Positions 7,576 to 63,146 of a DNA stretch of 64,000 bases are shown one piece after another; position 1 is the stretch's first letter; each line of letters starts with the position of its first letter. The stretch covers positions 99,510,001 to 99,574,000 of the forward strand of contig JAGIQG010000009.1 in the NCBI GenBank assembly GCA_024679065.1, given 5' to 3'. This DNA comes from Sphyrna mokarran (taxonomy: Eukaryota). The position numbers were made by a program, and so were the translations under genes. The notes below the pieces were generated by a model. The model saw nothing but the letters and a program-made list of their open reading frames with translations. It was not told where the DNA came from and searched no databases.

Positions 7576-7589
7576 TTAGAAGCTGATTC
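7576..7589 (-). CDS. Candidate terminal coding exon (G)ISF* of the micro-exon gene
   Basis: Strong acceptor gtgttttgtttttgcag|GA ATC AGC TTC TAA; phase 1 matches the preceding exon; AATAAA downstream. Confidence 0.45.
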
Positions 7590-8179
7590 CTGCAAAAACA
7601 AAACACATTAAAATGCGAATGAACAATGGTGCGATTATTTGACTTCATTTCCTAAGCATTAAACATTTGTGTTTAAGAACAAATGATTCACTGGGAAGGC
7701 TAGTTACAGTTAGCTAACGATTCGAAGGAGAACATCGTAGGATAAACGTTGTCCCAGATGATGGGGATGCATAACATAACATCCTCATTAATGATGGGGT
7801 AGTTGATTGTTGACGGTGGGAGAGGATGTCGAGTGAACATATGGTTTTGTTTCATTTAACAGTGCCGCATTAAGCAGAGCGAATGTCCTGTTTAGTTTAC
7901 GAATATGATAATATCTACCACGACTAGAGAGATAAGCAACAAGAAGGATCAGGCTCTATAGTCAGAATTTAAGGAGTTAGCTATGCACTTAAAAATACTT
8001 ACAGTCAGCATATTATTCCCAGTGTCAATTACAAATCCGTCGAAAAGTAAAACGATTATGTAACTCAAAGAGTAACTGAAAATAAGTGGAGGAGGGAATA
8101 TTTCGAACGTTGGAAAATTGCCCGCGGTTTTTGGTGAGGCCAAATAGTTTGCATACGATCTCCTTCGCAATTTAGCAGC

Positions 8180-10360
8180 GTATGTGGGAACGAGGCGGAA
8201 GTATCAGGGAGGGACATCAAGATATCAAATCCTTGCACAAATAGGTGGTGCTGGAGTAGTGTGAATTCTTAAAAGGATTAAAGTAGAGCAGAAATGAATA
8301 AATTATATATCCCATAAAATTAAATGCATGTGAATAGCGCGTAGTTGGTTTGTTGGTTTAGAAACATTTTGACACGAGGCATTATTCTGTTCTTCCTGTT
8401 TAGAGAACTGACCAAAGAACGGAAGGTTCGGGTTTCATATATTTTTGGTTGTAAGGTGTTCAGGAAACACATAACAGTAAGAAAAAAAAAGGAACAATGA
8501 TTAAGGAGAACATATCAGGCATGGAGGAAGATGATGTTCAGAAGTGCTCAAGGAAAATTATACTTGGGTAGAGCTAAGCAAGAAGAAAGTTATACTTAAT
8601 GCTCCACGTAATCTTTATACCACTAACTGATGAGATTCACACAGTGGAACTAATTCACAAGGCCATTATAAGACTTATTGAAAACTTTGATAATAGTTAT
8701 AATGAGGGGCTGAATTATCCGCTGGTTGATTGGGATAGTAATATTGGAAAGGCCAGAAAGTGTCAAAGGTTTGTGGAGTGTTTTCTGGAAAATTTTCGGC
8801 AGCGGTATGCTTTCAGTCCAATGAGGAAGGAGGCACTTGTCCACGCGGCTGCTGAGAATTAGTTGGGCCAAATGGTTCAAATGTGAGGAGAAGAGCATTT
8901 AGGGGACAGTGACAATTCTGTCGTATTATTTTGGCTATATGATCTGCAAGGACAATAATAACATAAATATCAAGTTGAACATTCACTTAAAGATTTATAA
9001 AAGCTGGCTTAAAATTGGTAAATTTTCACCGTTAGATAAGTTGTTATTATTTAAAGTTGGTCAGGTATCAGCAACATGTAATGCATCTGAGGAAACTGGA
9101 AAAGAAAACTAGAAATTCCGAGTCATTGTTCAGTTTATTTAGCGTCACGAATGCTAGGGCAACTGGTCAACGAAAACATTCACTCTTGCTTAAAGCGATT
9201 GTAATCATAATTCAACAACTGCAGACTTGTCTATTCAAATTCGGTGGTGCGAACGTTCGGCATCAATACGACTGCACAGAATTAATAACTCATGTAGCCA
9301 AATACGTATAAATCAAGGAAATCGAACACTGATTTGTTAACGGAAGATAGTGTTTACTTTGAATTAATTGAGTGCTTGTGAGGAGGTAGGCTGGGACGTT
9401 GATGACTATTAGTTGTAAGAGACGCATGAAATTGAAAGATGCATTTGGAAGATTGCCGCACAACAGATTTAGCAACATTTCTTATAGACAAGAACAGATA
9501 GCGGTAATGCGTTGGTATACAGGCGGAATGATAGGATTCGAATGTGAAAAAAAACATTTTTTTCGGGCTGGAAAATCGTTTCGACTCGATTTCCAAGACT
9601 AATCTTCGGGTTCCTTTGGGTTGGTAACTTTCTGGACGTTTTTCTTCCTCCTAAATATTAATTCTGCATGTATATGTGAACATAACGTGTACAGAAATAC
9701 AAACCTGAGAGTATTATGAAAGGAGAGGAGGATAGAATAATTAAAATGCAATAGAATAGTTGGAGCATTTGAGTGGCAGATGCAGTTCAATGCAGAAAGA
9801 AGTGAAGAGATTAGCTTTGTTTAGACGAATATAGCAAAAGAGTATAAACAAAAATGAACAGATCTAAAGAGGTGGTACCATGGCGGGATTTATGCGTATA
9901 TGCAAAAAATCACTGAAGATGTCATGAAGTACTCATAGAGCAATAAATCATACATCACGCAATGCTTCACTAACAGGGGAATATAGTACAAGAGCAAGGA
10001 TGCGATGTAGATCTTGCATAATCAGCTGTAGGGCTTCAGCTGGACATAGTATCTTGTTTTGACGCGACATGTTAGGGAACGTATGAAGACATAATTGAAA
10101 ATGCAGAGAAAATTCAAGAAAATGAATCTAGTGTTGAGAAAATTTTGTTACAAAGAAGAATTTCTGAATTCGGGGCTGCAAAGCGCATGCTGTGGAAAGT
10201 TGAATAAAACAAAAATCAAAGGGGAAGTGTACTGACATCTGAAAGTGAAGATGGTTCGAGATTATGCGGAAAAGGTGGGAAGAAGTGGATCATGTAAGCT
10301 GATCATTCCGAGAGCTGGTAGGTGAAATGGTTTCATTATAACCTACAATAATTCTGCTAA
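8180..10360 (+). mobile_element. Old CR1 fragments (endonuclease region about 8180-9040; RT tail and 3' UTR about 9690-10360)
   Basis: Decayed EN motifs in ORF 8599-8862 (GLNYPLVDW, FVECFLENFRQRY, HLGDSD) and the WQMQFNAE RT-tail motif near 9770. Confidence 0.7.
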
Positions 10361-10582
10361 GATGCTGTACACCCAAAAACAAAGTGATGGACATTTATTC
10401 TAGATCCCAGTCTAGAAAATACCCCACGGACATTATGCGAACCGTGTTTATGTTCGCTCAGGATATGTTGAGAGCCATGATTTTTATTTTAAATCAAAAC
10501 ATTAAAAAAGAGTCATTATCACAATGCTAACTTCTAAATCGAACAGCACCTATTCAAACAGAATTCTCACGAATATCCTCAC

Positions 10583-10618
10583 CCGCTCCCTTCAGTTGTG
10601 CTTGCAGTTTTCCAATTT
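10583..10618 (-). CDS. 36-nt phase 1-1 micro-exon (E)IGKLQAQLKGA
   Basis: ttattcatacctgatttcag|AAATTGGAAAACTGCAAGCACAACTGAAGGGAGCGG|gtgagg; clear paralogue of exon 45366-45401 with the same length, phase and donor. Confidence 0.85.
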
Positions 10619-11429
10619 CTGAAATCAGGTATGAATAAGAACGTGAGTTTCGTGCACTGCAAGGTTGTACACATAGCAATTTGAAAGTAATTGTTTCCAC
10701 CGGGATGCATTGAACGTTCATTGATTTAAGCAGTTAACCAAATTGGAGTTTGGCTGATTTATGTATTTCCAAATAGAATCAGGATGAGCAAAAAGATTAC
10801 ATCAAATTTCCTTCTGACAGTCAGGGCAAAAAACTAAGGAGAAATCTATATCCCTTTTTGTCGAATAATTGGAGTGTCGAAATGCAAATTGTTTATGCTC
10901 CAAACAATGTAGCAGATATCATTTTTTAACATCGTTTTCATAATAAATTAACATTTATGTCAATGGATATTAAGTTGGATTGTTTTTGGAACTGATTGTG
11001 CAAATTAGCAATGTGTAAACATTAGTTTAAATTTTCATTACGGAGGGAAATTGATGCTAAAAAATTAGCCGCACATTAATCAAACAGGACTTGTTTGCAA
11101 TTGATCTCTAGATGTGGAAGCCCGACATCATATTTAACATGGCACCTTTTCAACATCATACGTTTTGCAGTGTTGCTCAAACGAAGTTCTGCATTTTATA
11201 TATTGTCTGCCAATTTTGCAGCATCAACTTTTGTTTTCATAAACTTGCATACTAATTGGGAATGCGCTGAAAATTCTTTATCACCAATTTAAACAAAACT
11301 CTAGAGAATATATTAAAATGTGAAAAACAGTGTGAAAGCATCTCTATTATCCAAAATCTGCACCGCATAATATATAACATTAAAGCAGAAAGTTTCTGGC
11401 ACCCTTTATTGCCAAGACTTTGTCGACTG

Positions 11430-11710
11430 TTGGGAAACGTCATCGAATCATATAATCGCACCAGTGGAGAAGGAGGCGATTTGGCATGTCTAGTCTGTGC
11501 CGACTCTCTACAGATCACATTACCAAGCCCTAACCCACGGATTTAACCCGCTAATGTCCCTAAACTACAGATCTTTGATCTGCAGAAGCAACGGGACACG
11601 CATGCACATTCGGACGGAACATGCAAACCCCACTCAGAAAGTCAATAAGGCCGCAATAGAACATGTTCCCTTGGTGCTGTGAGGCAACAGTTTTAATCAC
11701 TGTGCTCAAG
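11430..11710 (-). mobile_element. tRNA-derived SINE (HE1-like)
   Basis: Reverse complement begins gcacagtgattaaaactgttgcctcacagcaccaaggga...gtttgcatgtt, matching the SINE copies at 25853 and 36270. Confidence 0.75.
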
Positions 11711-12638: not shown

Positions 12639-12665
12639 CAATATCTTTCACAAGCAGTTGTCTCA
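12639..12665 (-). CDS. 27-nt phase 1-1 micro-exon xRQLLVKDI
   Basis: tgacttttattacag|TGAGACAACTGCTTGTGAAAGATATTG|gtaatt; 23/27 identical to exon 63120-63146 with conserved splice sites. Confidence 0.85.
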
Positions 12666-20246: not shown

Positions 20247-20273
20247 TGCACGCTTGAAGAAGTTGTTTGCATT
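20247..20273 (-). CDS. 27-nt phase 1-1 micro-exon (E)CKQLLQAC
   Basis: attctccctcaacag|AATGCAAACAACTTCTTCAAGCGTGCA|gtaaga; open, with the same size and phase class as the other exons. Confidence 0.65.
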
Positions 20274-22491: not shown

Positions 22492-22515
22492 CGACATATT
22501 CTTCGTCTATGCTCC
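22492..22515 (-). CDS. 24-nt micro-exon (G)SIDEEYV
   Basis: ctgtctgcttcattacag|GGAGCATAGACGAAGAATATGTCG|gtaaac; open in phase 1 (also in phase 2). Confidence 0.6.
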
Positions 22516-23774
22516 CTGTAATGAAGCAGACAGTATCGTAAGATATATTGAGCTTTCTATACAATATTCAGTGCCATAAGTTCCAGATATGTTAACTCTG
22601 GTGCTCTGACTCTCAGACATTGTGTGTAACTTCAGCATTTTGTCGTTAACTTTCAGCAAAAGAATGTCAATATATCCCATTTCATGTTGCAACGATATTC
22701 TTCTCACAACGATTCTAAGTATTTATGCGACCAAAATAATCAAAGTTGCATAATTGCCATTCAATGCTATTCCAATTTTCAATAATAGACCTGCGAGACC
22801 AATAGTGAGGTCAGTTGGCATCAATTTCCAAGTAGACTAAGCTACTATCGAAACTCAGTGGCAACACTGGTGCTGATGAAATCCGAACGAGTGGAAGTGC
22901 AGTTTGGTTTCTTTGACATCAGGACCGCCTTTTACATCAGACCCATATACTTAGGCATTCAAATTTGACGCAAATGAAACGGTACTGGCCGTGCACGATT
23001 CCTAGTGTTCGTCCTCCGGATATCCCGTTCAAATAACAATATTGGTGTAGCGTACACTGCAAGCAGTTTTTGAATTGCAGCTCGAGATTTATTGTTATTC
23101 CAAGATGTAAGCTTGCTGGCATGAGCAGTGCTCTATTTTTTTTGACAGCTCATAAATTGGGAATGAAAATCCCGAGGTCCGCCCTTCTGCTGGCGCAAAA
23201 TAACATGAACGTTTAAATGTACATTTTGCATAATATGAACATCATGCCATAGGTCCTGCAAAGAAAAGTGAAACTGAACATTTTATAGGAAGCACTGTGA
23301 ATTTTAAAATCAATGTTAAAAAAAGGTGAAAAATGGAGGATTTTGAGATCAAGAAGTCGCATTATCACAAGTTGTGTCCTTCAGGCGATGTTTAATTGGC
23401 TTGCATCTTATTCAGAATGATTGTGTCTCTCCATTTTCAACATAAAGGGTGTTAACAAAATCCAACAGATATTTTATGTAAGCACCGTATCGTATTAATG
23501 AGATGAGTTCCTTTCTTCATCAAGATCGATCATATTGTGATCTAACGGATAACGGTCGAGCCACATTGAAAAATCATTTCCCAGGAAACATTTCTGACCT
23601 CTCTAAAAATTGATGACCACAAAAACCTCCAATTATAGTTTCTCTAATTCATAAGGGATAACGTAATCTTCAAGTCTAGTCGGTCACACTCAAAATTGAT
23701 TGCCGTTAGCAGGCCTGACAGAATAAATTTTCGTCCTCCAAAATCCAACCATTTTGTGACAGAAAAATAAGGAT

Positions 23775-23850
23775 CACGTGCATGCACAATCTATATTTTT
23801 TCGATTAATAGATTTGGGAAGTTCCGAGGAAGTGAAAAATTAATTTGCAT
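23775..23850 (+). promoter_or_regulatory. Clustered E-box, NF-kB, PU.1-IRF composite (EICE) and octamer motifs
   Basis: CACGTG 23775-23780; GGGAAGTTCC 23816-23825; GAGGAAGTGAAA 23826-23837; ATTTGCAT 23843-23850. Confidence 0.55.
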
Positions 23851-24349
23851 CACAAAAGCCTATGTGGCCGCGTACTGATCTGCTGCTTTGAACATTCTGT
23901 CGAACTTCGCGTTTATGGCCGTTGAGGGAATGTCGTTCGGAAAATGATTCAGCCCAATAACACATTGAAAAACGATCTCTTAAAATAACATGTAAGAATG
24001 TAATTTTTGTTCAATCTGCTGGATGTCCTCTGCTGGATGTCCTCCTGATGATGGAAAGTACATATGGGAATAAATAATAATTTTGTTATGAGCACTGCAG
24101 TAATATGACCTTCATATGTGCTAGAATGTTCTCAGTAAAATTATATTTCTCGTTTACTGATGTGCCTCTATTAAAGTGCTTTACCTTTCCCGACGATCGG
24201 ATCATGGCAAATATTCATTGCAAGCAGCCTTGCCTGCTCGATGCACTGAGATATTATCTCAGTACTAAAGCATATGCAAATACAGAAATATTCGAATTAT
24301 GTTCAGGAATCGACAAACTCTGCGCTACTATCCACGTCTCATTGGCTTA

Positions 24350-26410
24350 AAATGACATCAGTTTATGGCAATTAATTCCATTGTTAACCAAAATGAGCAT
24401 TTTTCGCCAAAACGTACGACCTACCTGCACCACCATCCCTGAAGGGAAGAGTCTACAGAAAAAAAAATCCCTAAAATAAATCGCCATCTCCTTTACGGAA
24501 GGGAGATTGGCTTGTGCAATTTCTGCATCCTCTAGTAATGATAACATTTGGAAGCAGAAACATAATACCAGCTGCCAAACTGAGAAGTCCATTCAGCATC
24601 ATACATGTTTAATTGGTAATTTATATAATTTTAAACTGCAGTGAACTTGAACCCAATTTGCCCAGGATGTCTTCATTTCAGAATTAGTTGGGTGAAACTT
24701 GACTGAAGTGCTTCAGTACATTTATGCCCTTCCATACAAAAGGGGACCAAAGTTTACACTGCATTACCATTTATACACCATTTCACTTGCGTAAACAACA
24801 TCATTCGATTTGCCTCGTTAGTTATTTGCTGGCTCAGTACTAAGTTCATGTGATTCATGTGTCAGGACACCACGATATATGTTTACTTTAGATTTGTGTA
24901 ATCTCTTCATATTTAGATAACAGATTTTAATTCTGCTGCGACCATAGGCGTATTTACATTTGTCATTTTGAACTGCCTTTTCCAATTTTCCGCCCTTAGT
25001 TTCAACTATCTATCGTCCTTTGCATATCTCTTTCCAATTCACAATTTACTTTCTCCCTCATCTTTGTGTCATCAGAAACAAAAACGACCATAAATTGGTT
25101 TCACTGATATAGATTAATGTTTTAAAACCAATCAAATTGGGAATTGAATTAATGCATTTCCACAAAATGAAAATTGTTAGGTGATGTCGAATCGTCGTGC
25201 AGTTGCTAGCCAACAATGTCAATGTTACCACCTACGATGTGTAATTTTATTCCGTCCAATCACATTTGATGTGCCACCTTGTTAAATGCCTTGTGCAAAC
25301 CGAAGAATGCCATGTTCAAAATTCTCATTTGTCCACATTTTTGTCATTTCCTCAAATAATTTTAATGTATTAGTTAAACACGATATATCTAATGCCATGC
25401 CACATGCTTTTTGCCTGCATTGAGATTTTCTAGGTACACAATTTCCACATGTCAGATTTTAAAACGAATAGCTTGAAGATTCTTGTTTTCCGTCCTCGTT
25501 CTTTCATTAATCCGTTATTTTCTAATATGATGGGACGTTTTCAGGATCCGGGATAACATGGAATATCAAACTCAAAGCATTTGCTATCTTCACAGCCACA
25601 TATTTGATGATACCAGGCCAACTCCACCTGGTTTGATAGATTTACTTTAATTATATCAGTATCCTTTCCTTTCCAACTGCAACTGTGTCCTCGGTCGCAT
25701 TCACATCCCAATTCACAATGATTTCTGGTACTTTTATGTTAATCTACTCAAATGAGACGAATGCAAAACAAATTTTCATTTCCTTCTCAACTTTCTTGCT
25801 TTACAGTATGGATTTCCAAAATTCACACACTGGAGGTCGAATAATCATGTGAGCGGCACAGTAACACAGTGACTGCACTGCTCTGCCACCACAGTGCCAG
25901 CATTGCTGCCTCACAGCGTTAGGGATCGCGGGTTCATTTCTGGCCATGAGTCACTGTCAGTGTGCAGTTTGGCTACACCAAAACTGTAACCAGAACTATC
26001 TACGGGGTTTTCTTCTGGCTGCTCTGGCGTCCTAACAAATTTCCTACTAAAAGCCAGAAATGTGCATGATAAATTTATTGGTTATGCTAAATTACACATA
26101 ATGTCAGTGTAAATCAGCAGATATGACAGGGTGAGATTCTTCCTTGTACTATTTCGATGGGCCGAATTGCCTTCTACTACACTGTAGCATTTCTATGTTT
26201 ATACAATTTATTCTGTTCCCCTTTTTATTCCCGTAGAAACCATTACCACATGCTTCTGTATTCCGACCCAAATTTATCTTGTGCTCTATATTTTTTTTCC
26301 TCATTGGCATTTCTTTTTGCTTTCAAGTTCAGTTTTAACTTTCCCCCTGCCCCTGCTGTATGCCACACTGCATCTTTCATTCGGTTTATTATCTTTCACT
26401 GATTTAGCTA
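24350..26410. repeat. Old duplicated block, copy 1 (decayed CR1 plus SINE); paralogue at 34780-36770
   Basis: Collinear matches, for example ctcctttacggaag...cttgtgcaa...tctagtaatg (24488 vs 34909), ttgagattttctaggtacacaat (25420 vs 35809) and ttttattcccgtagaaacca (26223 vs 36593). Confidence 0.9.
25853..26195 (+). mobile_element. tRNA-derived SINE (HE1-like)
   Basis: gcggcacagt...gctgcctcacagcgttaggga...ggttca head and gatgggccgaat CR1-like tail. Confidence 0.75.
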
Positions 26411-27659
26411 GCAACTGCCAGTGTGTCATTTCTGATTATTTCGTTATCACTGGGATGTACATTTTCTGAGCGTTGTGAAGCATTTTCCAAACTGTTTGCT
26501 ACAGCATTTCTACCAAATCGTTAATCTAATATCGCAGTTCGCTGTCACTGGCACCACCTTCTCGCCTCGGTAAATTTCCGATTTAAGTTTGGAACATTTG
26601 TTTTGACCCAGTTTTACCTCTCTGAGGCGAATGTAAAAGCCAACAATGTTGCCATCGCTGCTATCATGTAGTGCCTTTCTTATATGATCAAGACTGAAAC
26701 ATGTCTCCTTCTAGATTATCACACGTAATTTAAATGCCCCTTGGTTGTCTGTAGAACCTGCAGTTGCACGAAACAGTCATCACAGTACTTTCATAATTGA
26801 ACTTCCTTCACCAATGTAAGTTGTTCCACTGTATATTAAAATAAACTATATCCTTTGGTGTTTCAAAATAACCACCCCCACACCCCCGCACAATTCATCG
26901 CTTCTTCATGTCTCTTCCTACTGTTATAAGGCAAATCCCGAACAAAATGATGGACACAAAAAAAAGAAACATTCTCCAGTTTATGAAGATAAAGGTAAAT
27001 TTTAACTATGTCACTTATAATCTTCTTTGACCTCAGCAAGGCGGACCGAACAAATTTCAGTCTTCCAAATTGTAACTGATTTTGCTGTAGCGACGACAAG
27101 AATCACGTGCGTGTATGGTGTATATTTATTTGAATAACGAACTTCTGTAATCTCCGAATTTGGGGAAGGAAAAAATGTATGTCATCAGAAAATTTACGTG
27201 GCCGTTGTGCGAATCTAAATTCTGCCGAACTTTGTAAAGATGTCTGCTCAGGGAATGTAATTCGGAAAATGATTCAGATACGTCATATAGTGAAAAATGA
27301 TCTCTTAAAATAACAATGAAGAGTACAAAATTTGTTGTACCTGGTGTTATTCCTTTTGACGGCGGAATGTACATGTAAGAATAAATAATAGTTGTATTAT
27401 GAACAATGAGGTTAATATTCATTGTTCCTAGTTTTATTTCTGAACATTGCATTGCTGCTGTACTGATGCACCTCCGTTGAGATGGTTTGAAGACGGGCGT
27501 TTTCCGGCCATCCAGCCATGTGCTGGATTCATTGAAAGGAGCCCGATCTAATCGATTTACTGAGATCTTATCACAATACTAAAGAGCTTCGAGATAGAAC
27601 AAACAATCGAATTAGGTTCAGAAGTCGAGCAAGTATACGGCACGTGGCTAATCCGATTA

Positions 27660-28565
27660 AAAATAAGTTTCCGGCCATCGACTGAACTGTTGTCCTGAAT
27701 TAGAATCATTTTTCCAATCGACCAGAACGAATAATCACATCGGACACAACTATACCTGAACACCGATCACGACTCTCACCGTAGCCAAAGCTCGACAAAA
27801 TGCATTCATTCCAAGAAACTTGGAAAACGTGCAGGCCTGCAGGTGAGAATGAAACAATGCGATCCCACGACCCCACTCCCCAGTTTACTTTTTGGAAATG
27901 TCCAATCTCTGGAAAACAATCTAGACAAACTTAGAGCCAGAAAATTTTCCAATGAAAACTGAGGGATTGTTTTGTAGTCTGCTTCACGAAGATATCGTTC
28001 CCTTCTGCTTCACTGGACTGCGCCGGGCAAGTAAAGGTCTTCTGAATCCATTGAATGGGCTATACAGCTCCCTCTGGCAATGCTAATTGATGTACTGTCT
28101 GCTTCCTCATCAGCACCTTGCGGTGCCTCGACGTGGCAACACTGACACCTTTCTGCTCCCCAGACCTACAATAACTGACTCCAAAATGCCTGTATTCTTC
28201 GAGAGTTCACCTCTGTTATCCTGACGGCAATTCACATCTCACCCCATACTGATGTGAAGATCGCGCCGGGCAAAATATACGCAACTACGAATAGCCTTGA
28301 GACGAAACTTTCGGCGGCCATGGTCATTGTCGCCAAGACTCCAAGTTACCACCAACACATCTCCTGTTCCATTTGAGGCCCAAACATCCTATACCAATGC
28401 TACACAAGTATCAAACACGCTTATCACTCTATCGATCGCCCACTCGTTGGTAAATCAGACCACAAGTCTGTACTCTTACCCAATACTTACAGAGAAAAAG
28501 TGAAGCGGGAGCGTCCATCAAAAAAAAAAGTGCAATATTGATCTGAGAAATCGGACAATCGGGAC
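27660..28565 (+). mobile_element. Rex1/Babar LINE endonuclease fragment (one copy in each tandem unit; also about 29630-30530, 31485-32365, 33405-34750)
   Basis: Decayed GKRAGLQVR, PLPSLLFGNVQSLEN, CFTE, CSPDLQYLTLKFRPY.LSREF and GKSDH motifs characteristic of the Rex1 APE domain. Confidence 0.88.
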
Positions 28566-31500
28566 GCGCTGAGATGAATGTGAAAGTGAATCGAAATTCA
28601 ATTGCTGCTGCAGTATAGTGCATTTCTTACTTGATCATGAATAAAAGCTGTCTCTTTCCACATTTTCATTATAATTTAAACGCCTCTCTGGCTGTGTGTA
28701 GAACCTACAGTTGGACGGAACAGTCATTACAATTCTTTCACAATTCAACTTCCTTCACCAATGTGAGTTGTTCCACTGTATACCAGAATAAACTATCATC
28801 CCCTCCACAATTCATTCGATTTTTCATGTCTCTTCCTACTGTTATGAGGCAAATCCCTCACAAATGATGAACAGAAAAAAAAACCAGAAACATTCACTAG
28901 TTTATAAAGACAAAAGTGTATTTTGAATCTGCGGTCTCACTCATAAACTTCTTTGACCTCAGCCACGCTGACTGAACAAATTTGAGTGTTCGAAATTTTA
29001 ACCGATTTTGAGACAGCGACGACAAGAATCAGATGCGTATATGGTGTATATTAATTTGATTAACGGACTTCTGTAATCTCCGATTTTGGGGAAGAAAAAA
29101 TGTTTCCATCATAAAAGCTTACGTGGCCGTTGTGCTAATCTACTGAATTGAACTTTGCAAAGATGTCTGCTCAGGGACTGTAATTCGGAAAATGGTTCAG
29201 ACACGACATAGAGTGAAAAATTATCTCTTACAATAACAATATTGTTAATATTGAATAATAATTGTTAATATTTCAATAATATTGAAAAGTATAATATTTG
29301 CTGTACCTGTCGTTATTCCTTTTGACGGTGGAATGTACATTAAGAATAAATAATAATTGTTATGAGCATTGAGGTAATTTAATATTCATTGTTCCCATAT
29401 TTATTTCTCAACATTGCATTGCTGGTGTACTGATGTACTTCCGTTGAAGTGCCTTATAGACATGAGTTTTCCGGCCATCCAGCCATGTGTTGGATTCATT
29501 GACAGGTGCCTGATCTAATCGATTTATTGATATCTTATCACAATATTAAGGTACTTCGAGATAGAACAAACATTCGAATTAGGTTCAGAAGTCGAGTAAG
29601 CATGCAGCACGTGGCCAATCCGACTACAAGGAGGTTTCATGCCATTGATTGAACTGTTAACCTGAATTAGTGTAATTTTGCCAACCGACCGGTGCGAATA
29701 ACCTTATTGGACACAACTATACCCTTAACACAAAAAACTACTCTCACCTTTTCCCTGCTCGAAAATATGCATTCCTTCCAGGAAACTTGGGAAACGTGCA
29801 GGTCTGCAGGTGAGAGTGAAACAATGCGATCCCACCACTCCACTCCCCAGTTTACTTTTTGCAAATGTCCAATCTCTGGAAAACCATATGGACAAACTTA
29901 GGGCCAGTCTCAATTCCCAATGAGTACTGAGAGACTCCTTTGTACTCTGTTTCACGGAGATATGGCTTACTCCTGCTTCACTAGATTGCGCCAGACAACC
30001 TAGAGGATTCTCAATCCATTCAATGGACCTTATAGCTGCCTCTGGCAATGCTAATTGATGTGCGGTCTGTTTCCTAATCAGCACCTTGCCGTGCCTCGAC
30101 GTAGCAACACTGACACGTTTCTGCTCCCCAGACCTACAATATCTGACGCTAAAATTCCGCCCCTACTGCCTTTCTCGAGAGTTCACCTCCATTACCCTGA
30201 CGGCAGTTCACATCTCGCCCCGTGCTGATGTGAAGATTGCGCTGGCCAATATATACACAATCAGGAATAGCCTTGACACGAAACTTCCGGAGACTACGGT
30301 CATCGTTGCCCGGGATTCCAAGTTACCACCAACACGTGTCCTGTTCCACTTGAGGCCCAAACATCCCATACCCGTGCTACACAAGTATCAAACACGCTTA
30401 CCAGTCTATCGACCGCTCACTCGTTGGCAAATCAGACCACAAGGCTGCACTCTTGCCCAATGCTTACAAAGAAAAACTGAAGGGGTAGCGTCTATCAAAT
30501 AAGTAGTCGGAGAAATTGGATGATCGGGGCTCGCTGAGATGAATGTGAAAGTGAATCATAATACAATCTCTGTTGCAGTATAGTACATATCTTACTTGAT
30601 CTTTCACAGTTGAACCTGCTTCACCAATGTGAGTTGTTTCACTGTATATTAGAATAAACTATCACCTTTGGTGTTTCAAAATAGCCCCCCCCATCCACAA
30701 TTCACTCGATTTTTCAAGTCTCCTCCTACTGTTATGAGGGAAATCCCTAACAAAATGATGAACAGAAAAAACGGAAACATTCTCCAGTTTATAAAGACCA
30801 AGGTATATTTTAAATCCACCCTGTCACCCATAAACTTCTTTGACCTCAGCAGGGCGGACTGAACGAATTTGAATCTTCGAAGGTTTAACCGATTTTGTGA
30901 CAGCGACGACAAGAATCACGTGCGTATATGGTGTATATTCCTTAGATTAACGGACATCTGTAATCTCCTCATTTGGGGAAGAATAAATAAGTTTCCCATC
31001 ACGAAAGCTTATGTGGCCGTTGTACTAATCTACTGAGTTGAACATTCTGCCGAACTTTGCAAAGATGTCTGCTCAGGGAATTCGGAAAATGATTCAGACG
31101 CGTCATACAGTGAAAAATGATCTCTTAAAATAACAATGAAGAGTGCAGAATTTGCTGTACCTGGCGTTATTCCTTTTGACGGTGGAATGTACATATAACA
31201 ATAAATAATAATTGTGTTATGAATAGTGAGGTATTTTAATATTCATTCCTCCTAGATTTATTTGTGAACATTGCATTGCTTGTGTACGGATGCACCTCCG
31301 TTGAAGTGCCTTATACACACGAGTTTTCCGGTCATCCAGCCATGTGCTGGATTCATTGAAAGGCGCCAGATCTAATCGATTTACTGTGATATTATCACAG
31401 TACTAAAGTACTTCGAGATAGAATATACGTTCGAATTAGATTCAGAAGTCGAGCAAGTATGCGGCACGTGGCTAATCCGACTAAAAATAAGTTTCCGCCC

Positions 31501-33898
31501 GTTGATTGAGCTGTTAACCTGAATTAGAATCATTTTTCCAACCGACAAGAGCGACTAACCTCATTGGACACAACAATACCCTTAACACTGATAACTACTC
31601 TCGCCTTTTCCCTGCTGGAAAAAATGCATTCATTCCAGGAAGCTTGGAAAACGTGGAGGTCTGCAGGTGAGAAGGAAGTAATGCGATCCCACGACTCCAT
31701 TCCCCAGTTTACTTGAAAATGTCTGGAAAACAGTCTAGACAAACTCATTTTCCAATGAAAAGTACTCTGTTTCATGGAGAAATGGCTCACTCCTGCTTCA
31801 CAGGACTGTGCCGAACAACCAAATGTCTTCTCCATTCATTCAATGGACCATATAGCTGTCTCTGGCAAGACTAATTGATGTGCGGCCTGCTTCCTAATCA
31901 GCACCTTCTGGTGCCTCGACGTAGCAATACTGACAAGGTTCTGCTCCCCAGACTTACAATACCTGACGCTAAAATGCCGCCACTAACTGCCTTCCTCGAG
32001 AATTCACCTCCGTTACCCTGACGGCAGTTCACATCTCACCCCATACTGATGTGAAGATCGCGCCGGGCAAAATATACGCAACCACCAATGTCCTTGAGAC
32101 GAAACTTTCTGAGGCCACGGTCATCGTTGCCGGCGACTCCAAGTTACCACCAAGACATCTCCTGTTCCACTTGAGGCCCAAACATCCTATACCAATGCTA
32201 CACAAGTATCAAACGCGCTTACCACTCTATCGACCGCCCACTCGTTGACAAATCAGACCACAAGTCTGTACTCTTGCCCAATCTTACAATGAAAAACTGA
32301 AGCTGGAGCGTTCATTAAAAAAAAATAGTCGTGCAATGTTGGTCCGAGGAATCGGATAATCGAGCCTCGCTGAGATGAATGTGAAAGTGAATCATAATAC
32401 AATCTCTCCTGCAGTGTTGTGCATTTCTTATTTGATCATGAATAAAAGCTGTCTCTTTCTATATTTACATTATACTTTAAAAGCCTCTCTGGCTGTCTGT
32501 AGAACCTGCATTTGGACGAAACAGTTATCACAATACTTTCATAATTGAACTTCCTTCACCATTGTAAATTGTTTCGCTGTATATTAGAACAAACTATTAC
32601 CTTTGGTGTTTCAAATTAGCCCCCCTCCACATTTCATTCGATTTTTCATGCCTCCTCCCATTGGTATGAGGCAAATCCCTAACAAAATGATGAACAGAAA
32701 ATTACGGAAACATTCTCCAGTTTATGAAAACCAAGGCATATTTTAATACCACCCTGTCACTCATAAACGTCTTTGACCTCAACAAGGCGAATTGAACAAA
32801 TTTGAATCTTCGAAGTTTTAACCGATTTTGTGACAGCGACAACAAGAACCAGGTGCGTATATGGCGTATATTTATTTGATTAACGACTTCTGTAATCTCC
32901 GAATTTAGGGAAGAAAAAATGTTTCCATCATAAAAGCTTACGTGGCCGTTGTGCTAATCTACTGAATTGAACTTTGCAAAGATGTCTGCTCAGGGAATGT
33001 AAGTCGGAAAATGATTCAGACACGTCATACAGTGAAAAATTATCTCTTACAATAACAATGAAAAGTATAATATTTGCTGTACCTGTCGTTGTTCCTTTTA
33101 ACTGATTCATGAACTCTAAGGATAAATAATAATTATGTTATGAGCATTGAGGTAATTTAATATTCATTGTTCCTATATTTATTTCTCAATATTGCATTGC
33201 TGGTGTACTGATGTACTTCCGTTGAAGTGCCTTATAGACATGAGTTTTCCGGCCATCCAGCCATGTGTTGGATTCATTGAAAGGTGCCTGATCTAGTCAA
33301 TTTATTGATATCTTATCACAATATTAAGGTACTTCGAGATAGAACAAACGTTCGAATTAGGTTCAGAAGTTGAACAAGTACGCTGCACGTGGCTAATCCA
33401 ACTCAAAAGAAGTTTCCGGCCATTGATTGAGCTGCTAACCTGAATTAGAATCATTTTTCCAACCGACAAGAGGAACTAACCTCATCGGGCATAACTGAAC
33501 CCTTAGCTCTCACCGTCTCACAGCTCAATCAAATGCATTCATTCCAACAGAGCTTGGAAAACGTGGAGGCCTGCAAGTCAGAGTGGAGTAATGCGATCCC
33601 ACGACTCCACTCCCCAGTTTACTTCTTGAAAATGTCAAATCTCTGGAAAACAGTCTAGGCAAACTCATTTTCCAATGAAAAGTAAGGGACCGCTTTGTAT
33701 TGTTTCACGGAGATATGGTTCACTCTTGCTTCACGGAACCGTACCGAGCAACCAAAGGTCTTCTCCATCCATTGAATGGACAATATAACTGGCTCTGGCA
33801 AGGCAAGACAATGTGCAGTCTACTTCCTAATCAGCACCTTGTGGTGCCTCGACGTAGCAATACTGACAAGTTTCTGCTCCCCAGATCTACAATACCTG

Positions 33899-34472
33899 TA
33901 GGTACAGTACCTGTAGGTACTGTACAAAACTCTAGTGCGGCCGCACTTGGAGTATTGTGTGCAGTTCTGGTCCCCACATTATAAGAAGGATGTGGAGGCA
34001 TTGGGGAGGGTACAGAGGAGGTTTACCAGGATGTTGCCTGGTATGGAGGGCAGGTCCTATGAAGAGAGGTTGAAGGATTTGAGGTTGTTTTCGTTAGAAA
34101 GGAGGCGGCTAAGGGGGGATCTTATTGAAACATATAAGATAATTAGAGGTTTGGATAGGGGGGACAGTGATAGCCTTTTTCCTAGGATGGAAAAAGCTAG
34201 CACGAGGGGACACAGCTTAAAATTAAGGGGTGATAGTTATAGGACGGATATCAGAGGTAGGTTCTTTACCCAAAGGGTGGTTCGGGAGTGGAATGCCCTG
34301 CCTGCAGCAGTTGTAGATGCGCCAAGTTTGGTGGCGTTAAGAGGTTAGTTGATAAGTATATGGAAGAGAAGGGAATGGTTTAGTTTGGAGGGGCATTGCT
34401 TTTTATATTGGTCGGCGCAACATCGAAGGCCGAAGGGCCTGTTCTGTGCTGTAATGTTCTATGTTCTATGTT
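33899..34472 (+). mobile_element. Young 5'-truncated CR1 inserted in tandem unit 4
   Basis: RPHLEYCVQFWSPHYKKD...RRLRGDLI; (GTTCTAT)n tail; 8-bp target-site duplication AATACCTG at 33891-33898 and 34473-34480. Confidence 0.96.
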
Positions 34473-34779
34473 AATACCTGACGCTAAAATGCCGCCCCTA
34501 CTGCCTTCCTCGAGAGTTCACCTTCGTTACCCTGACGGCAGTTCACATCTCACCCCATACTGATGTGAAGATCGCGCTGGGCAAAATATACACAACTACC
34601 AATAGCCTTGAGACGAAACTTTCGGAGGCCACGGGCATTGTTGCCGGGGACTCCAAGTTACCACTAACACGTCTCCTGTTCCACTTGAGGCCCAAACATC
34701 TTATACCAATGCTACACAATTATCAGACACGCTTACCACTCTATCGACCATATAATATAAATGTATATAAATCGTTTAC

Positions 34780-36770
34780 TTCCATTAATTCCATTGTTTG
34801 GGCTGAATGAGAATCTTTCATCGAAACATGCGACCTAACTGTACCTCTTTCACTGGGGGGAATAGACTCCTACAGTAAAAGGACTCCATGGGAAATTTAA
34901 AAAAAAATCTCCTTTACAGAAGTAGGCTTACTTGTGCAAACTCTGCATTGTCTAGTAATGGGACTTCTCCGAAGCACAACATAATTTCAACACTCAATGT
35001 GTGACTTTCATTCAGGATCATGCATGTTTTAATTGATCACTTCCCATTGTTGTAAACTTATTTTCAGATAAGGTAATACCTTCATTTTGGAATGAGTTGG
35101 GTGAAAACTGTCAGAGGTGCTTCTGTACATTTATGTCCTTTCAAAAACGGATCAAAGTTTTGCAATTTGTATTCCATTTCACTTGCATAAACATCATCAT
35201 TCCATTTGCCTTGTTAGTCTATACTTCTGTGAGTCACAACAGCAAAATGTATGTTTACTTGAGATTTCTGCAATCGCTTCACGTTTCGATAATGCAGTGC
35301 TTTCTTGATCTTGCTGCGAACGAAATCTCGTTAAAATTTGTAATTTTTTTCAATTTTTTTGGGCCATCAATTTTACCTATCTATCGTGCTTTGCAAACGA
35401 AATTGTCTCCTTTACAACTTGTCTTTGTTTTTACTTCTCTTTGTTTCATTGGAATCTAAAACTACGATAAATTGATTTAATTGATATTGAAACAGTAAAT
35501 AGTTAACGTTTCAGCCTTAATCAAATTAAGGATTCAATTAATGCATTTCCCCAACCCCAAAATTGCCAGATTATGTATAATCTCCATTTCCAGCTAGCTG
35601 GACGATAATATCAATGTTGTCATCTACGCAATGTGCTCTTAGTCCATGTAATGACATTTGAAGTGCCATCTTGTTATGTTCTTCAAACAGAAGAATACAA
35701 ATTTCACAAGTCCCGTTTATCAACGTGGCTTGTCGCTTTCTCAAATAACTCTAATATATGAGCTATTCACAATACCTCGAGCAATGAACCATAGGTATTT
35801 TGCTTGTGTTGAGATTTTCTAGGTACACAATAGATCCCAACAATTTCCACACGTCAGATTTTAAACTGACTTTCTTGTATATTCCTGTCGTCTGTCCTCA
35901 TTCTTTTATAGATTCGCTATTTTCCAATCTGATGGCATGTATCCCGCACCTGGGACAATTTGAAATATCAAAGGCAAAGCATCTGCCATCTGTCAGCAGC
36001 CAAAAGTTTAATAATACGAGGTGAACTCCATCAGGACTGATAGATTTTATATAATTCGTTCAGCATCCTTTCCATCGCAACTGTATTGGTGTCAATCTCC
36101 TCCCACAGTTTCACATCTCAATTCACAATGAGTTCTAGTATGTGTCACATTGATCCATTATAATAAGGCAGCTGCAAAATAAATGTTCAATTCCACTTTT
36201 TAATTTTTTCATTCTTAATTTCCAAAATTCTCTCCTTGCTAGAAAAATACTCATCTGAATGATACATTAATCAGCACAATGACTGCACTGCTGCGCCACT
36301 GCAGTGTCAGCACTGCTGCGCTAGGGACCAAAATTCAATTGTGTCCATAGGTCGCTGTCAGTTTTTAATTTGCACATTCTCGCTGCATCCACATGTGTTT
36401 CCTCTGGGTGCTCCAGTTTCCTGTCACATTCCAAAGATGTGCAGATTAGGTTGAACGAATTACCCTATAGTGTCAGGATAGGTCAGCAGATAGGGCCTGA
36501 GTGGGATTGTTGCCTGTACAAGCTAGATGGGCCGAATGGACTACTACTGCACTTTAGGGATTCTTTTTTTCAATCAATTATTCCATTCTCCTTTTTATTC
36601 CCGTAGAAACCAATATCGCAAACTTTTATATTCCTAGTCAGATGTATCTGAATACTACATTCTTTTTCTTCATTAACATTTTCTTTGTTGTTTTCAATTC
36701 AGTTTCCCCCTTCCCCCTGTCTATGCGATACTGCATCCCTGCCTTTCAGTGTAATATTACCTTTTACTTA
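34780..36770. repeat. Old duplicated block, copy 2, including SINE at about 36270-36565
   Basis: Collinear with 24350-26410; the SINE shares the same internal duplication near its head. Confidence 0.9.
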
Positions 36771-36814
36771 TTTATAAGCCTTCCTGGATTCCTGGGATGA
36801 CTTATTTAAGACTT
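36761..36814 (-). CDS. Candidate 54-nt phase 1-1 exon (E)VLNKSSQESRKAYK*VK with in-frame TAA
   Basis: ttttctgaatgttgttcag|AAGTC...GTAAAAG|gtaata; TAA at 36768-36770; the donor end overlaps the duplicated-block boundary. Confidence 0.4.
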
Positions 36815-37208: not shown

Positions 37209-37244
37209 CTGCTTCTTCACATCGGCGTTTTAATTCTTTCATTT
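37209..37244 (-). CDS. 36-nt phase 1-1 micro-exon (E)MKELKRRCEEA
   Basis: ttctgccttttgttttacag|AAATGAAAGAATTAAAACGCCGATGTGAAGAAGCAG|gtatga; very strong splice sites. Confidence 0.85.
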
Positions 37245-41014: not shown

Positions 41015-41041
41015 CTTTTTCTTTTGAACGCAAAATTTGCG
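41015..41041 (-). CDS. 27-nt phase 1-1 micro-exon (A)QILRSKEK
   Basis: gcgtttatttttctgcag|CGCAAATTTTGCGTTCAAAAGAAAAAG|gtaagt; consensus donor. Confidence 0.85.
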
Positions 41042-45365: not shown

Positions 45366-45401
45366 CAGCAGACCGCAGCTGTGCGAGTAGCTTTTCTATT
45401 T
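45366..45401 (-). CDS. 36-nt phase 1-1 micro-exon (E)IEKLLAQLRSA
   Basis: tgtctatctctattaccag|AAATAGAAAAGCTACTCGCACAGCTGCGGTCTGCTG|gtgagg; paralogue of 10583-10618. Confidence 0.85.
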
Positions 45402-46174: not shown

Positions 46175-46175
<1 letters not shown>

Positions 46176-48555: not shown

Positions 48556-48564
48556 TTGTTCTTA

Positions 48565-51790: not shown

Positions 51791-52079
51791 AAAAAAAACG
51801 TTGTCTCTTTCGACTATGGTTGAAATGATGATTGCCTGCCCCACCAGGGAGTCTCATCTGTACATGCATAAGGAGGAGTGTCAGAGCTAATGACAATCTC
51901 GATGTTGAATTTGTACCCCAAACACTCCTAAGTGGAATCAAGTTTGCAACTAAAAGGAGTCTGGTGAAGGGACAAAGGCCACTGAGGAATTATTTCACAC
52001 TCCCACAATTGAACAGTCATCAGCGAAGGCATTCAGCCCACATGGCCTGCATCTGATCAAAAGGGAGGCGGAGAGAAAG

Positions 52080-59222: not shown

Positions 59223-59959
59223 CGGGACTTTCTGAAGGCTTTCGAGGAAGACTCAACTATCAGAATTAAAATGCATGGGATTGCAGGTAATATCCTGCGG
59301 TGGATTGAAATTGCTTAACAGAGAAGAAGCACATATTCGACATGAACTCTCTTTTTCCTGATTGGCAGACAGTGACAAGTGAGGCTCTTCAGGGATCTAT
59401 GCAAACACCTCAACTGTCCACATTGTTAATACATCACTTAAAAGAGGAAATTAAATACATTTCTCCAAATTTGCAGATAATATAAATTGTGTGGGAGGGT
59501 GAGCTGTGAGGAAGATGCAGAAACGTTTCAGCGTGATTTGAATACGCTGAGAGTGCGAGCACATGCATGGCTGAAGCTGCATAATGTGGATCAATGTGAG
59601 GTCACCCACATTTATAGAAAGGATAACAAGACATATTATTGTTTGAGTAAGTGTAAGTTAAAAATATGGATCCTCAGCGGAACATGGTGCCCTCCTGCAT
59701 CAATTTCTCCAAAATAATAGCTGAGTCCCGGATTTATTGTCTAGCATTAATACCACTGCACCACCACCTCTCCAACGAGTACACCTCTAAAGCCTTGTTT
59801 GCCAATACACTGAAATAATTTTACTTTGACCACTGCAGTTTCGTAATAATTTCATCGAAGGGGATAAAATAAATTTCAATCTGTTTTTCGCTGAATCTCG
59901 GGACTGACTGAGCACCCCTACCTCCCCCCCCCCCACCCGGCGCCCCGACCCCCACCGTC

Positions 59960-61050
59960 TTCAGAGCAGTGGTTATGAGGAGAGGTTAACTAAACTAATT
60001 TTGTGTTCATCGGAAAGATGGAGGGTCAGAGAAGACCTGGCAGAGGTCTACAAAATTATGACAAGCATTGACAGAGTGGATATTGTATAAATAAAAGAGG
60101 TCCGATGTTCAAAGTGAAAATGGGAAAGTTTAAGGGGCATGTTAGATGCAAGTTAGATTTCACGTAGAAATCGATGGATGTCCGGAAAGCGCTGCCAAGG
60201 GAGGTGGTGGAATCAATCACAGGAGCAGATTTTAAGAGGCACCTGGTTGAGTACACGATTAGGGAGAGAACAGAGGCATGTGAATCGAGTAATGGTAAAA
60301 AAAAAACTTTATTTGGTGCATGGTGTTCGGCATAGAGACTGAGGGCCAAATGGTCTGTTCCTTGCTGTACTTGTTTTGTGTTATTTAAGTACGTAGATGC
60401 AACGGCATATAAAGAAGGCAAATGGTTTCTGAACCCTCATAGCAAGAGGATTTCAGCATAGGAATAGGGAATCTTTTTTGTAATTTTATAGCGCATTGTT
60501 GAGGCCATACCTGGTGAATTGTGCACAGTTCTGGTTTCTTTATCTGAGGAAGGTTGTCCTTGCAACAGTAGAGTACTGCAAAGTTAATGAGGATGCTTCC
60601 TGGAATGGTAAGCTGTCACATGAGGAGAAATGAAGTCGATAGGATTGTGTTCATTTGAGTTTAGACAAGTTAGAGTGGATGTCATGGAATCTTAGAAAAT
60701 TCTAACAGAGTTAGTCAAGATAGATTTAGAAAAAGTGTTCCAGATGGTGCGGTAGTCCGGAACTAGATGTCATAGTGGGAGGATAAGGAGTAAACGTTTT
60801 AGAAATGAGCTGAGGAGCAATTTCATCACTGTGAGCGTGGAGAATCAATACAATTCATTACTACAAAAAGCAGTTGAAGCCAAAACATTGCGTGATTGAA
60901 AAATAACAGATATATCAATTGGTCCATCAGATCAAGGACTATCTGGCGAAGATGGAATCAAGATATTGGTTTGATAATCGGACATGTTCAAAATGAATGG
61001 TGGAGTGGGTCTAAAGGGCCTAATGGCTTATCCTTCGATGTTCTATGTTC
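59960..61050 (+). mobile_element. Two CR1 3' fragments (59960-60380 and 60400-61050)
   Basis: YEERL...DLAEVYKIM and LYSALLRPYL..CAQFW remnants; gttctatgttc tail at about 61040. Confidence 0.82.
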
Positions 61051-61629
61051 CTTTGAATGAGCTTTGATTTAATTGCAGACTGAAATGTTGTCCTGAATTC
61101 TGGACGCAACCTCCCATGGGTCGTCAGCCTGCTAGCGCAGCAAAGTCCCTAGACTGAACTACAGGTGAAAGGCGGAGGCGGTGGAAAGTGGGAGGTATAG
61201 GTAATGGGTGAGACATCCGTTGAAAAGATGGGGGAAACTCTATGCTACATCACCGGAAAAGAGGGCTCATTTCCAAAATAACAAAGTGTCATCCAATGGA
61301 GGTCCGCCCACATCCCTTTCCCGTCGGAATGAAGAACCGATCATTTTCCACTGTTCAGGGCTCACAAATTCCTTCTGCCAGTACAGAAACGGAGACTGGC
61401 CGGGAAAAATCCCACGGTGTACAATAATTGATTACTTAGTGCCTACAATTGGTTAGGAGTGAAACTTTACTCATCCGAACACATCATCGCTTTGAGGTGA
61501 AGGCAGGTCAGAATGCATATGGTAGACAATTCCTTTTGTTTTACACTTGCCCCTTTCATTTCACTAGAAATCGCACCAGCAGGCACTTGTTAACTCCTTG
61601 CGCTTTTCACAAGTAACTTCTTACGTTTT

Positions 61630-62470
61630 TTTAAAATTCATTCCTGGAATATGGGTGTCACGACTGGTCAGCATTTAATGCCCATATCTCGTTACTCTTG
61701 CGAAGGTGATGGTGAGATGCTTTCTTGAATCGCTGCAGCCCACATGATTTGGGTTGACTAACAACACAGACAGGCAGTGATTTCCACGATCTTGACCTGA
61801 CGACTGCGAAAGAATTGTGATATATTTTCAAGTCAGGATGGTGAATATCTGGGAAGGAAACTTGCTGGTGGTGGTGCTCACATGTACCTGTTGCCATTAA
61901 CCTGTTTTGATGGAAGTAGTCGTGCGTTTCGAAGTTGCTGTCTAAGGATAATTATTGAATTGCTACAGTGCATCTTGTAGATAGTACGTACTGCTACTGC
62001 TGAGCGTTGGTGGTGGACGGCGTGGATGTGTGTGATGTCTATCAAGTAGACTGCTTCGTCGTGGATGCTTCTTGAGTGTTTTTGGAGGCGCACACATCCA
62101 GGTAATTGGAGAGTATTCCATCCCACTCGTGATATGTGCCTCGTAGGTTGTGAATAGGCTTTTGAGTGTCAGGCGGTGTATTCCTGTATTCCTGGCCTCC
62201 GATCTACTCTTGTAACCATAGTTTACACGGCAAATCCAGTTGCGTTTCTGGTCAATAGTGTGGGATTGAATGATGGAAACACAATTGAAAGTAAATGGAC
62301 TGTGGTTAGAGTGCCTCTAGTGATAGTCATTGCATGACATTTGTTTGGCATGAATCTTCCTTGCTATTTGTCAACGGAAGCTTGGATAGGTTCAGAACTC
62401 TTTACATTTGAACCAGAAGGGAATCAGTATCTGAAGAATGGCGCTGAACATTGTTGTCATCATCAGTGAA
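61630..62470 (-). mobile_element. LINE 3' fragment (CR1/L2 clade, different family)
   Basis: ORFs 61658-62126 show IHAVHHQRSAVAVRTIYKMHC and RSWKSLP...LQRFKKASHHHL RT-tail motifs. Confidence 0.78.
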
Positions 62471-63119
62471 CCCAGATGGCGCTGAATTGAAATGGTTGCC
62501 TGTTCACAGCAAGTTCTTCTGTAAATGTCATGATTTTATCTTTGGGAGAGAGTTTGCCTACTGAGTGACTTGCTCTGATTGTTCAATGCTGATGGAGTTA
62601 TCTGTCCTGTTCAGTACTGAATGTAATGTTCATATAAAATACTCCGGAAACAAATGGCAAAACAACTCCAAGAATGAGTTGCACACATCTTTAATATCTT
62701 TAGTAGCAAATTAAAATATTAGATAATTTAGTAGAAAAAGTGGATAAAATAGGAGCATGCTGGTTTCCTTGAGTATTACTTATTTATAATTAGGTTAGAA
62801 ATTAACAGATTTGTTATGATTTTCATACTGGTTCTAAAATGAGTCTTTAGAGATTTATACATACGTACTACAATCTGCATGGTATAATCGCGTAATCCAG
62901 TTTCAAGTGACGTTGAAGTAAAGCGAGTTATTACAATGCTTGTAATGTTTAGTTAGCAGCTTTCCAATTGTTCATGCGATTTATAAAATAAAATGCCACT
63001 CTCGAAGCATTATATAGAGAACCAGCCTACTGCACCGGTAATGTCATACTAATAAGTTCAAAGGAAAAGGACATACAAAATATAATGGACCATAAGATAA
63101 TGTATTCTTTGTCAATTAC

Positions 63120-63146
63120 CGGTATCTTTCAAAAGCAGTTGTCGCA
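63120..63146 (-). CDS. 27-nt phase 1-1 micro-exon xRQLLLKDT
   Basis: atgacttattacag|TGCGACAACTGCTTTTGAAAGATACCG|gtaatt; paralogue of 12639-12665. Confidence 0.85.

Follow-up and report, generated by a model that had tools for sequence, protein, structure and literature searches.

A predicted 331-kb micro-exon gene in a misannotated, MHC-linked shark family of the coil + B30.2 kind

Can a run of exons no longer than 36 nucleotides (nt), strewn over tens of kilobases of shark DNA, belong to a real gene, and if so, what would it encode? The question is raised by the minus strand of a 64,000-nt stretch of the Sphyrna mokarran genome (contig JAGIQG010000009.1, here C1548, positions 99,510,001-99,574,000; hereafter the window). 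A sequence-only reading had picked out eight symmetric micro-exons there, encoding a coiled coil of about 85 amino acids (aa) over 55 kb, and had suggested that they form the tail of a receptor related to butyrophilins (BTN) and chicken B-G. By comparison with a catshark relative and with a neighbouring paralog (copy A), the window holds the last nine micro-exons of a 331-kb gene, copy B. [quoted passage not shown] The exon chain, its orthology, the B30.2 relic, purifying selection and MHC linkage can each be read in the DNA; the function proposed below is inferred only. Coordinates without a contig or megabase scale are window positions; larger ones refer to C1548.

The exon chain in the window and beyond

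All eight exons were found on the minus strand, bounded by AG and GT, opening in phase 1 and splicing into the peptide first proposed. In order, they measure 27, 36, 27, 36, 24, 27, 27 and 36 nt, with acceptors of 5.3-15.0 bits and donors of 5.0-11.6 bits against a locally trained matrix. Their peptides occur in identical order, with 62 of 93 columns identical, in a 945-aa RefSeq model of the small-spotted catshark S. canicula (XP_038671249.1, here P0001), which was reached via the B30.2 exon of copy A. The exons are thus conserved in a related shark. When candidate window exons were chained against P0001 residues 241-365, the minus strand in phase 1 scored 261, versus 34 on the plus strand, 43 in phase 0, 31 in phase 2, 78 with a reversed reference and at most 78.4 with 100 shuffled references. 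The chain retrieved 8/8 acceptors (a shorter donor was chosen for 37244), one further conserved exon and two weak end picks. Across the 1.46 Mb that surround the window, strong AG..GT segments 24, 27 or 36 nt long number 170 on the minus strand versus 12-21 in five controls; since 76 such sites had served to train the splice matrix, the count is in part circular.

In order of transcription, the first exon (63120-63146, 27 nt) encodes RQLLLKDT, is identical to P0001 residues 257-264 and has its copy A ortholog at 99,247,614. IEKLLAQLRSA (45366-45401, 36 nt) matches residues 266-276, with 78% identity to the copy A exon; QILRSKEK (41015-41041, 27 nt) corresponds to 278-285 and MKELKRRCEEA (37209-37244, 36 nt) is aligned to 287-297, with copy A orthologs at 99,240,589 and 99,236,620, respectively. 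These are followed by a 24-nt linker exon, SIDEEYV (22492-22515; residues 306-312; copy A homolog near 99,231,731), and by the 27-nt exon CKQLLQAC (20247-20273), which was chained to P0001 and is an internal paralog of an exon at 99,575,623, 1.6 kb past the right end of the window. RQLLVKDI (12639-12665, 27 nt) is identical to residues 323-330 and is an internal paralog of 63120-63146 (85% over 60 nt); IGKLQAQLKGA (10583-10618, 36 nt; residues 332-342) stands in the same relation to 45366-45401. The ninth micro-exon, 21 nt at 6385-6405, encodes LFPSSE where P0001 has LSPSSD (344-349), has an 18-nt ortholog in copy A at 99,218,871 and is the last conserved exon of copy B. All nine are phase 1-1 exons of the minus strand. 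The intron between 37209 and 22515 contains a copy-specific tandem array (23640-36774) with units of ~2 kb, one half of which is a dispersed repeat and the other a match to a stretch of copy A with a candidate 12-nt phase-1 exon. Array copies at 33083-94, 31161-72, 29307-18 and 27341-52 retain AG, 12 nt and GT, and their acceptors score -5 bits; the catshark has 7 extra linker residues at this site.

Upstream of the window lie ~78 further micro-exons (99,575,597-99,843,639). The earlier estimate of ~85 aa over 55 kb therefore described real exons and fell short of the gene, which reaches ~273 kb farther upstream. As assembled here, copy B has a 132-nt first coding exon and 87 micro-exons (2,490 nt), encoding ~870 aa over 331 kb. 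The count is that of 87 chained exons, minus four weak picks, plus four exons matched to copy A; the catshark models P0164 (S. torazame) and P0001 served as chaining references, and a few of the shortest picks are weak. In copy A, the chain comprises 128 picks, 123 of them before the B30.2 region. By length, 45/87 chained exons of copy B have 27 nt, 19/87 have 36 nt and 11/87 have 24 nt, and the median intron is 2.8 kb. Some 87 coding micro-exons (~125 in copy A) over a third of a megabase make an extreme architecture, which annotation pipelines split and misname. A TGC motif just upstream of the 3′ splice site is an enhancer of neural micro-exons. This SRRM3/4-type element is not enriched here (14/87 exons in copy B and 24/128 in copy A, versus 27% of 9,445 background pyrimidine-rich YAG sites), and the gene offers a test case for the splicing of long micro-exon runs without it.

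The first coding exon of copy B, MAAPVDEYINIGT (132 nt, 99,847,299-99,847,430), is hydrophilic and encodes MAAPVDEYINIGTEP; this exon also opens copies A and C and recurs close to the start of P0164. This Met exon is phase 1-1 and open for four codons upstream of the ATG in all three copies, so that an internal position is possible. Farther upstream, a conserved candidate exon carries in-frame stops in both A and B (its acceptors are weak). A 41-aa first-exon query against longer proteins came back blank; a relative turned up later by another route, and the blank thus marks a limit of sensitivity. On contig C1215, the Met-exon pattern is matched a fourth time, with no homology following.

Loss of B30.2 and selection on the rod

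At the 3′ end, the sequence-only reading had placed the stop in a candidate exon encoding GISF* (7576-7589, minus strand), with an acceptor of 12.8 bits and an AATAAA at 7445, 144 nt from the exon start. This end is not ancestral. The exon is single copy in the genome, copy A has neither a counterpart nor a matching acceptor, and the conserved exon 6385-6405 lies beyond it. GISF* is a plausible new terminal exon of copy B and, being private to copy B and upstream of 6385-6405, at best one of two possible ends. By either route, the predicted protein lacks B30.2.

Past 6385-6405, a repeat insertion (499-1468) occupies the place of copy A's next exon (FEQPVK), which copy B is without; ~107 kb of copy A are then unmatched in copy B, after which comes a B30.2 relic. 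In copy A, ~45 further micro-exons lead to a B30.2 exon at 99,103,835 that scores 32.5 bits against Pfam SPRY (cut-off 26.3). The relic (99,502,844-99,503,378, minus strand) is 65% identical to that exon, with 12/16 gaps frameshifting over ~540 nt and the first stop after 28 residues. It lies 6.6 kb before window position 1: the window contains no B30.2 exon, as had been noted, and the place where one had been suggested does hold one, in decayed form. Compared with catshark-type relatives, copy B is short of ~430 C-terminal rod residues and of B30.2.

These losses, of ~107 kb of A's 3′ exons and of a working B30.2, are what speaks for copy B being a pseudogene. The rod tells otherwise. Seventy-one of the 87 copy B exons pair with copy A, and over 610 codons the synonymous divergence (dS) is 0.64 and the nonsynonymous (dN) 0.25, giving a dN/dS of 0.39 (bootstrap 0.31-0.49); the pairs were picked via the catshark chain, so that conserved exons are favoured. 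A/B identity is 0.75, 0.81 and 0.67 at the three codon positions. When the catshark is used as outgroup, changes confined to B number 74 residues and those confined to A number 78, and this near equality, together with the dN/dS, argues that the rod of copy B stayed constrained while B30.2 decayed. For 3/3 tested A exons at first missing from the B chain in the shared span, a matching site was found in B. By these substitution measures, the copy B micro-exons are under purifying selection, and with the chaining controls above they make it very unlikely that copy B is a pseudogene or that its exons arose by chance.

A tandem family beside the MHC, and the search for a receptor

Self-comparison of the region revealed a colinear tandem duplication, with copy A at ~99.10-99.49 Mb and copy B at 99.50-99.86 Mb, and dozens of AG..GT segments of 18-36 nt, in phase 1, conserved between the two. 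At least five copies lie on C1548: A, B, C, F (100.54-100.71 Mb) and G (ending at 101.42 Mb). Copy C occupies 99,904,624-100,087,563 and 100,245,682-100,480,383, split by 160 kb with few exon candidates; its 3′ part has internally repeated sets of 27/30/36-nt exons, and one of its introns (100,032,070-100,037,078, plus strand) contains stop-broken gag/pol frames resembling long terminal repeat (LTR) elements or endogenous retroviruses. Because every exon is in phase 1, splicing across copies is conceivable, and F, C, B and A might form one giant transcript ending in the B30.2 of copy A, with the Met exons as alternative starts. The copies stand on one strand, the Met exons accept phase 1, and only one near-intact B30.2 exon was found between 99.10 and 101.41 Mb. 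Copy B, however, possesses a B30.2 relic and a homolog of A's upstream region of its own and thus arose as a whole-gene duplicate, and catshark models run from one Met exon toward one B30.2. We regard such read-through as improbable.

All 49 of 49 MHC class I matches fall on C1548, at 85.8-95.8 Mb, 3.7-13.7 Mb from copy B. Most of 99 B30.2 matches are on the same contig, where several IgC exons stand beside B30.2 exons, and a RING-B-box gene lies 170 kb past copy A. Annotated relatives exist in catsharks, in the basking, epaulette and whale sharks, and in an electric ray, a skate and the elephant shark, under misleading names: zinc-binding protein A33-like (XP_038671249.1), TRIM39-like (XP_038672306-10), butyrophilin-like, golgin-like (XP_069775418-28, 'golgin A6-like/trichohyalin-like') or uncharacterized (XP_072329362/3). 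These coil + B30.2 models show the exon order of copy B, whose residue identity with catshark is ~68% over paired exons, and they lack the RING, Ig or golgin features that their names imply. In the shark MHC region the family seems to occupy more than 2 Mb, and it dates to the chimaera-shark ancestor. Through this span and age, it bears on the origin of BTN, B-G and TRIM proteins by head-swapping on a coil + B30.2 tail. It is a real, large and misannotated gene family. Among titles and abstract starts we found no paper on it; subscription journals and supplements lay mostly outside that search, and shark MHC annotation tables may mention it.

On a B30.2 tree, a single branch (100/100) unites the 14 family rows, from chimaera to sharks; the 18 BTN-like and 29 TRIM-like rows stand outside it and are intermixed. 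The tree is unrooted, its labels were assigned by regular expression, family rows were chosen by similarity, and unlabelled library matches and near-duplicate isoforms were excluded. Since BTN-like and TRIM-like domains mix, it does not decide between descent from BTN and from TRIM. Against sequences in the PDB, the family B30.2 scores best with BTN3A1 (80 bits), versus 60 bits for TRIM7.

That match, the true IgC + B30.2 genes on the same contig and the phase of the Met exon would suit the receptor proposed at the outset, with the coil as the cytoplasmic tail of a membrane B-G/butyrophilin protein, immunoglobulin (Ig) and transmembrane exons farther upstream and the Met exon internal. The sequence beyond position 64,000, where a check for such exons had been suggested, yielded none up to the hydrophilic Met exon. 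On C1548, the interval from 97.4 to 109.2 Mb contains none of 28 genome matches to an IgC exon (PF22705), and that from 98 to 102 Mb none of the best 150 V-set matches. Tblastn with 7-8 BTN-like N-terminal parts gave no Ig match in 98.91-100.714 Mb (with no local positive control), nor did two such parts in 101.41-101.53 Mb; 100.714-101.41 Mb is outside these spans, which leaves the receptor some room. Two apparent Ig matches were to the query's own B30.2 part. The hydrophobic stretches close to the 5′ end lie in introns, and none is common to copies A and B; the one at 99,840,978 adjoins a 36-nt exon. In both copies the candidate exon farther upstream is interrupted by stops, as described above. 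Neither Ig nor transmembrane segments (0/14 family models, many of them 5′-partial) nor RING or B-box (0/14, by regular expression) were found, and from the Met exon on the chain is coiled coil and linker throughout. In P0001, SPRY is the sole Pfam domain over cut-off, with no RING or B-box. Scans of the flanks for long open reading frames and Ig patterns returned only frames of long interspersed elements, LTR elements and low-complexity sequence, the B30.2 exon, and nearby genes of TRIM, RING and tektin-like type. As these searches turned up no exon for Ig, transmembrane, RING or B-box parts, we take copy B not to be a B-G/butyrophilin receptor, and its protein looks like a soluble rod. A membrane-anchored tail is quite unlikely. 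What survives of the receptor assignment is the tie of the coil to the B30.2 world of butyrophilins and TRIM proteins, and the MHC linkage.

The rod: predicted form, relatives and possible roles

Hydrophobic residues recur with a period of 3.51 in P0001 and P0164, above the 99th percentile of 100 shuffles. The window peptide, at 3.46, likewise passes its 99th percentile, which the corresponding catshark segment taken by itself (248-343) narrowly misses. Hydrophobic codons are 1, 4 and 8 of the 36-nt exons (0.83, 0.90, 0.75) and 3 of the 27-nt exons (0.71). Read from these codons, each 27+36 pair is a 21-residue, three-heptad unit built of 9+12 residues, just as first proposed. AlphaFold2, with a 13-sequence alignment, predicts long helices interrupted by short linkers and, at the C-terminus, a beta sandwich (mean predicted local distance difference test, pLDDT, 64.5; predicted template-modelling score 0.29), whose fold matches the PRY-SPRY domains of BTN and TRIM proteins about equally. 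Two copies of P0001 241-343 are predicted to form an in-register parallel dimer, with a score of 0.44 versus 0.00 for the best of 3 controls; dimer runs share at least 55% of contacts, with pLDDT of at least 61. The mark applied is reached by 21/30 solved homodimers and 0/23 monomers; among eukaryotes, by 17/29 (animals 7/16; 1/7 without an older solved relative) and 0/30 monomers, rates by which a pass may reflect memory of coiled coils. The period and the predicted dimer agree with the coiled coil claimed for these symmetric exons.

A further proposal, that combinatorial exon skipping tunes coil length, fared less well. Only 4/87 chained exons encode 7 or 14 residues, the modes being 27 and 36 nt. 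In catshark and ray, isoform models vary by internal stretches of 9, 6, 9, 12, 11, 23, 8 and 8 residues, so that skipping seems to occur in relatives, as far as database models go, and 0/8 events are multiples of 7. Loss of a single exon would shift the coil register, and only removal of a 27+36 pair would preserve it. The exons of copy B are probably mostly constitutive.

Several observations weigh against a soluble, B30.2-less dimer as the product of copy B. The gene is known only from DNA and comparison with gene models, and because the relatives' models are in several cases split or partial, the full-length chain depends on two of them. The coil core is hydrophobic at only ~4/6 places per 21 residues, and the dimer was modelled on the catshark ortholog segment. 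The B30.2 of copy A has an in-frame TGA ~20 codons before its end (~99,103,373), a codon that is Arg in catshark and is also TGA in the copy B relic. As coding sequence beyond the TGA is still well conserved in copy A, we infer independent CpG decay in A and B; in copy A, a recent nonsense allele, read-through and assembly error are candidates. B30.2 exons were looked for behind copies C and F and none was found there, so that, with the TGA in A, B30.2 may matter little in this species. The domain is open over the matched part in paralog G and intact in catshark, basking shark, ray, skate and chimaera relatives.

If copy B does encode a soluble dimer, we picture the family as cytosolic rods, ~120 nm long for copy B and longer in members of full length, one end bearing an acidic tyrosine motif and the other a target-binding B30.2 domain. 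Such a rod would correspond to a butyrophilin or B-G tail that has shed its membrane part and, through exon duplication, become much longer. Copy B would then act via the rod alone, either as a homodimer or as a partner of B30.2-bearing paralogs, by analogy with BTN3A2 and chicken B-G tails. In a more tentative extension, which we hold possible and rather doubtful, these proteins are MHC-linked cytosolic rulers of cartilaginous fishes: rods of 100-200 nm with a tyrosine motif and a B30.2 sensor, diversified by duplication, deletion and skipping of 27/36-nt exons, in which copies without B30.2 pair with and tune the sensor copies, an independent, membrane-free version of B-G/BTN3A2 logic.

A structural or trafficking rod is unlikely in our judgement, and would be a tropomyosin- or golgin-like coil acting on actin-myosin or in epithelial vesicle sorting, with a dispensable B30.2. 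It draws on the conservation of the rod while the B30.2 of B is dead and that of A truncated, with none found for C and F, on a conserved YINI, which we take to fit the YxxPhi sorting motif, and on the precedents of the chicken zipper protein and guinea-pig enterophilin. Against it stand the intact domains in the relatives just listed, the open one in G, and a tandem expansion within the MHC TRIM/BTN zone that fits the birth-and-death evolution of immune genes. Protein-atlas look-alikes are generic, unrelated coiled coils of no single family.

Among known systems, butyrophilins (BTN3A1/BTN3A2, BTN2A1) share heptads followed by B30.2, the best PDB sequence and fold matches and the predicted parallel dimer; the shark family differs in having no IgV, IgC or transmembrane part, more than 100 heptads against few in BTN, and a B30.2 on its own long branch. 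BTN3A2 itself is a B30.2-less member beside B30.2-bearing BTN3A proteins. The C-IV TRIM proteins (TRIM39, TRIM7, TRIM21) also combine coiled coil and PRY-SPRY and are densely clustered on the same contig, but the shark family is without RING or B-box, and its rod is long and modelled as parallel, whereas TRIM coils are short and antiparallel. Nearest in architecture to copy A, by general description only, is a mammalian protein, guinea-pig enterophilin-1, a soluble extended leucine zipper ending in B30.2 and much shorter than the shark rod.

Enterophilin-1 binds SNX1, according to the portion of the source used here (PMC13749957), and BTN and C-IV TRIM proteins are described as having alike C-terminal domains in the part drawn on of PMC10445537. 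In the sections of PMC5938342 and PMC4046983 consulted, chicken BG tails consist of heptad repeats in ~27-38 split-codon exons of 21 nt, mammalian BTN tails have few heptads and a B30.2, and a soluble BG tail, the zipper protein, displaces tropomyosin. On those accounts, the B-G genes resemble the shark family in their long coil of many tiny split-codon exons, their multigene, MHC-linked setting beside a TRIM cluster, the replacement of a B30.2-ended butyrophilin tail by a long heptad tail, and the existence of a soluble tail form. They differ in having signal, IgV and transmembrane exons, none of which was found for copy B, and one-heptad exons of 21 nt where copy B has ~87 exons, mainly of 27, 36 and 24 nt; in the shark family, moreover, B30.2 loss is copy-specific. 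Since the tests for Ig, transmembrane, 21-nt, RING and B-box features came out negative, we do not file the shark gene under BTN, B-G or TRIM. In having lost B30.2 while its coil is still selected, copy B matches the chicken B-G state, so that tail function becomes testable in a second lineage.

Further members and neighbours were observed elsewhere. A second cluster of family-type B30.2 exons lies at 8.56-14.32 Mb of contig C668, one of them with upstream candidates for 27-nt coiled-coil micro-exons. Just outside the class I region of C1548, at 81.09-81.85 Mb, ~20 V-set exons are arrayed in tandem. Beyond copy A, at 98,912,530-99,017,625, are what we take by resemblance to be a RING-B-box TRIM gene whose B30.2 is of ordinary type, tektin-like exons (plus strand) and a single-exon gene with RING and a hydrophobic tail.

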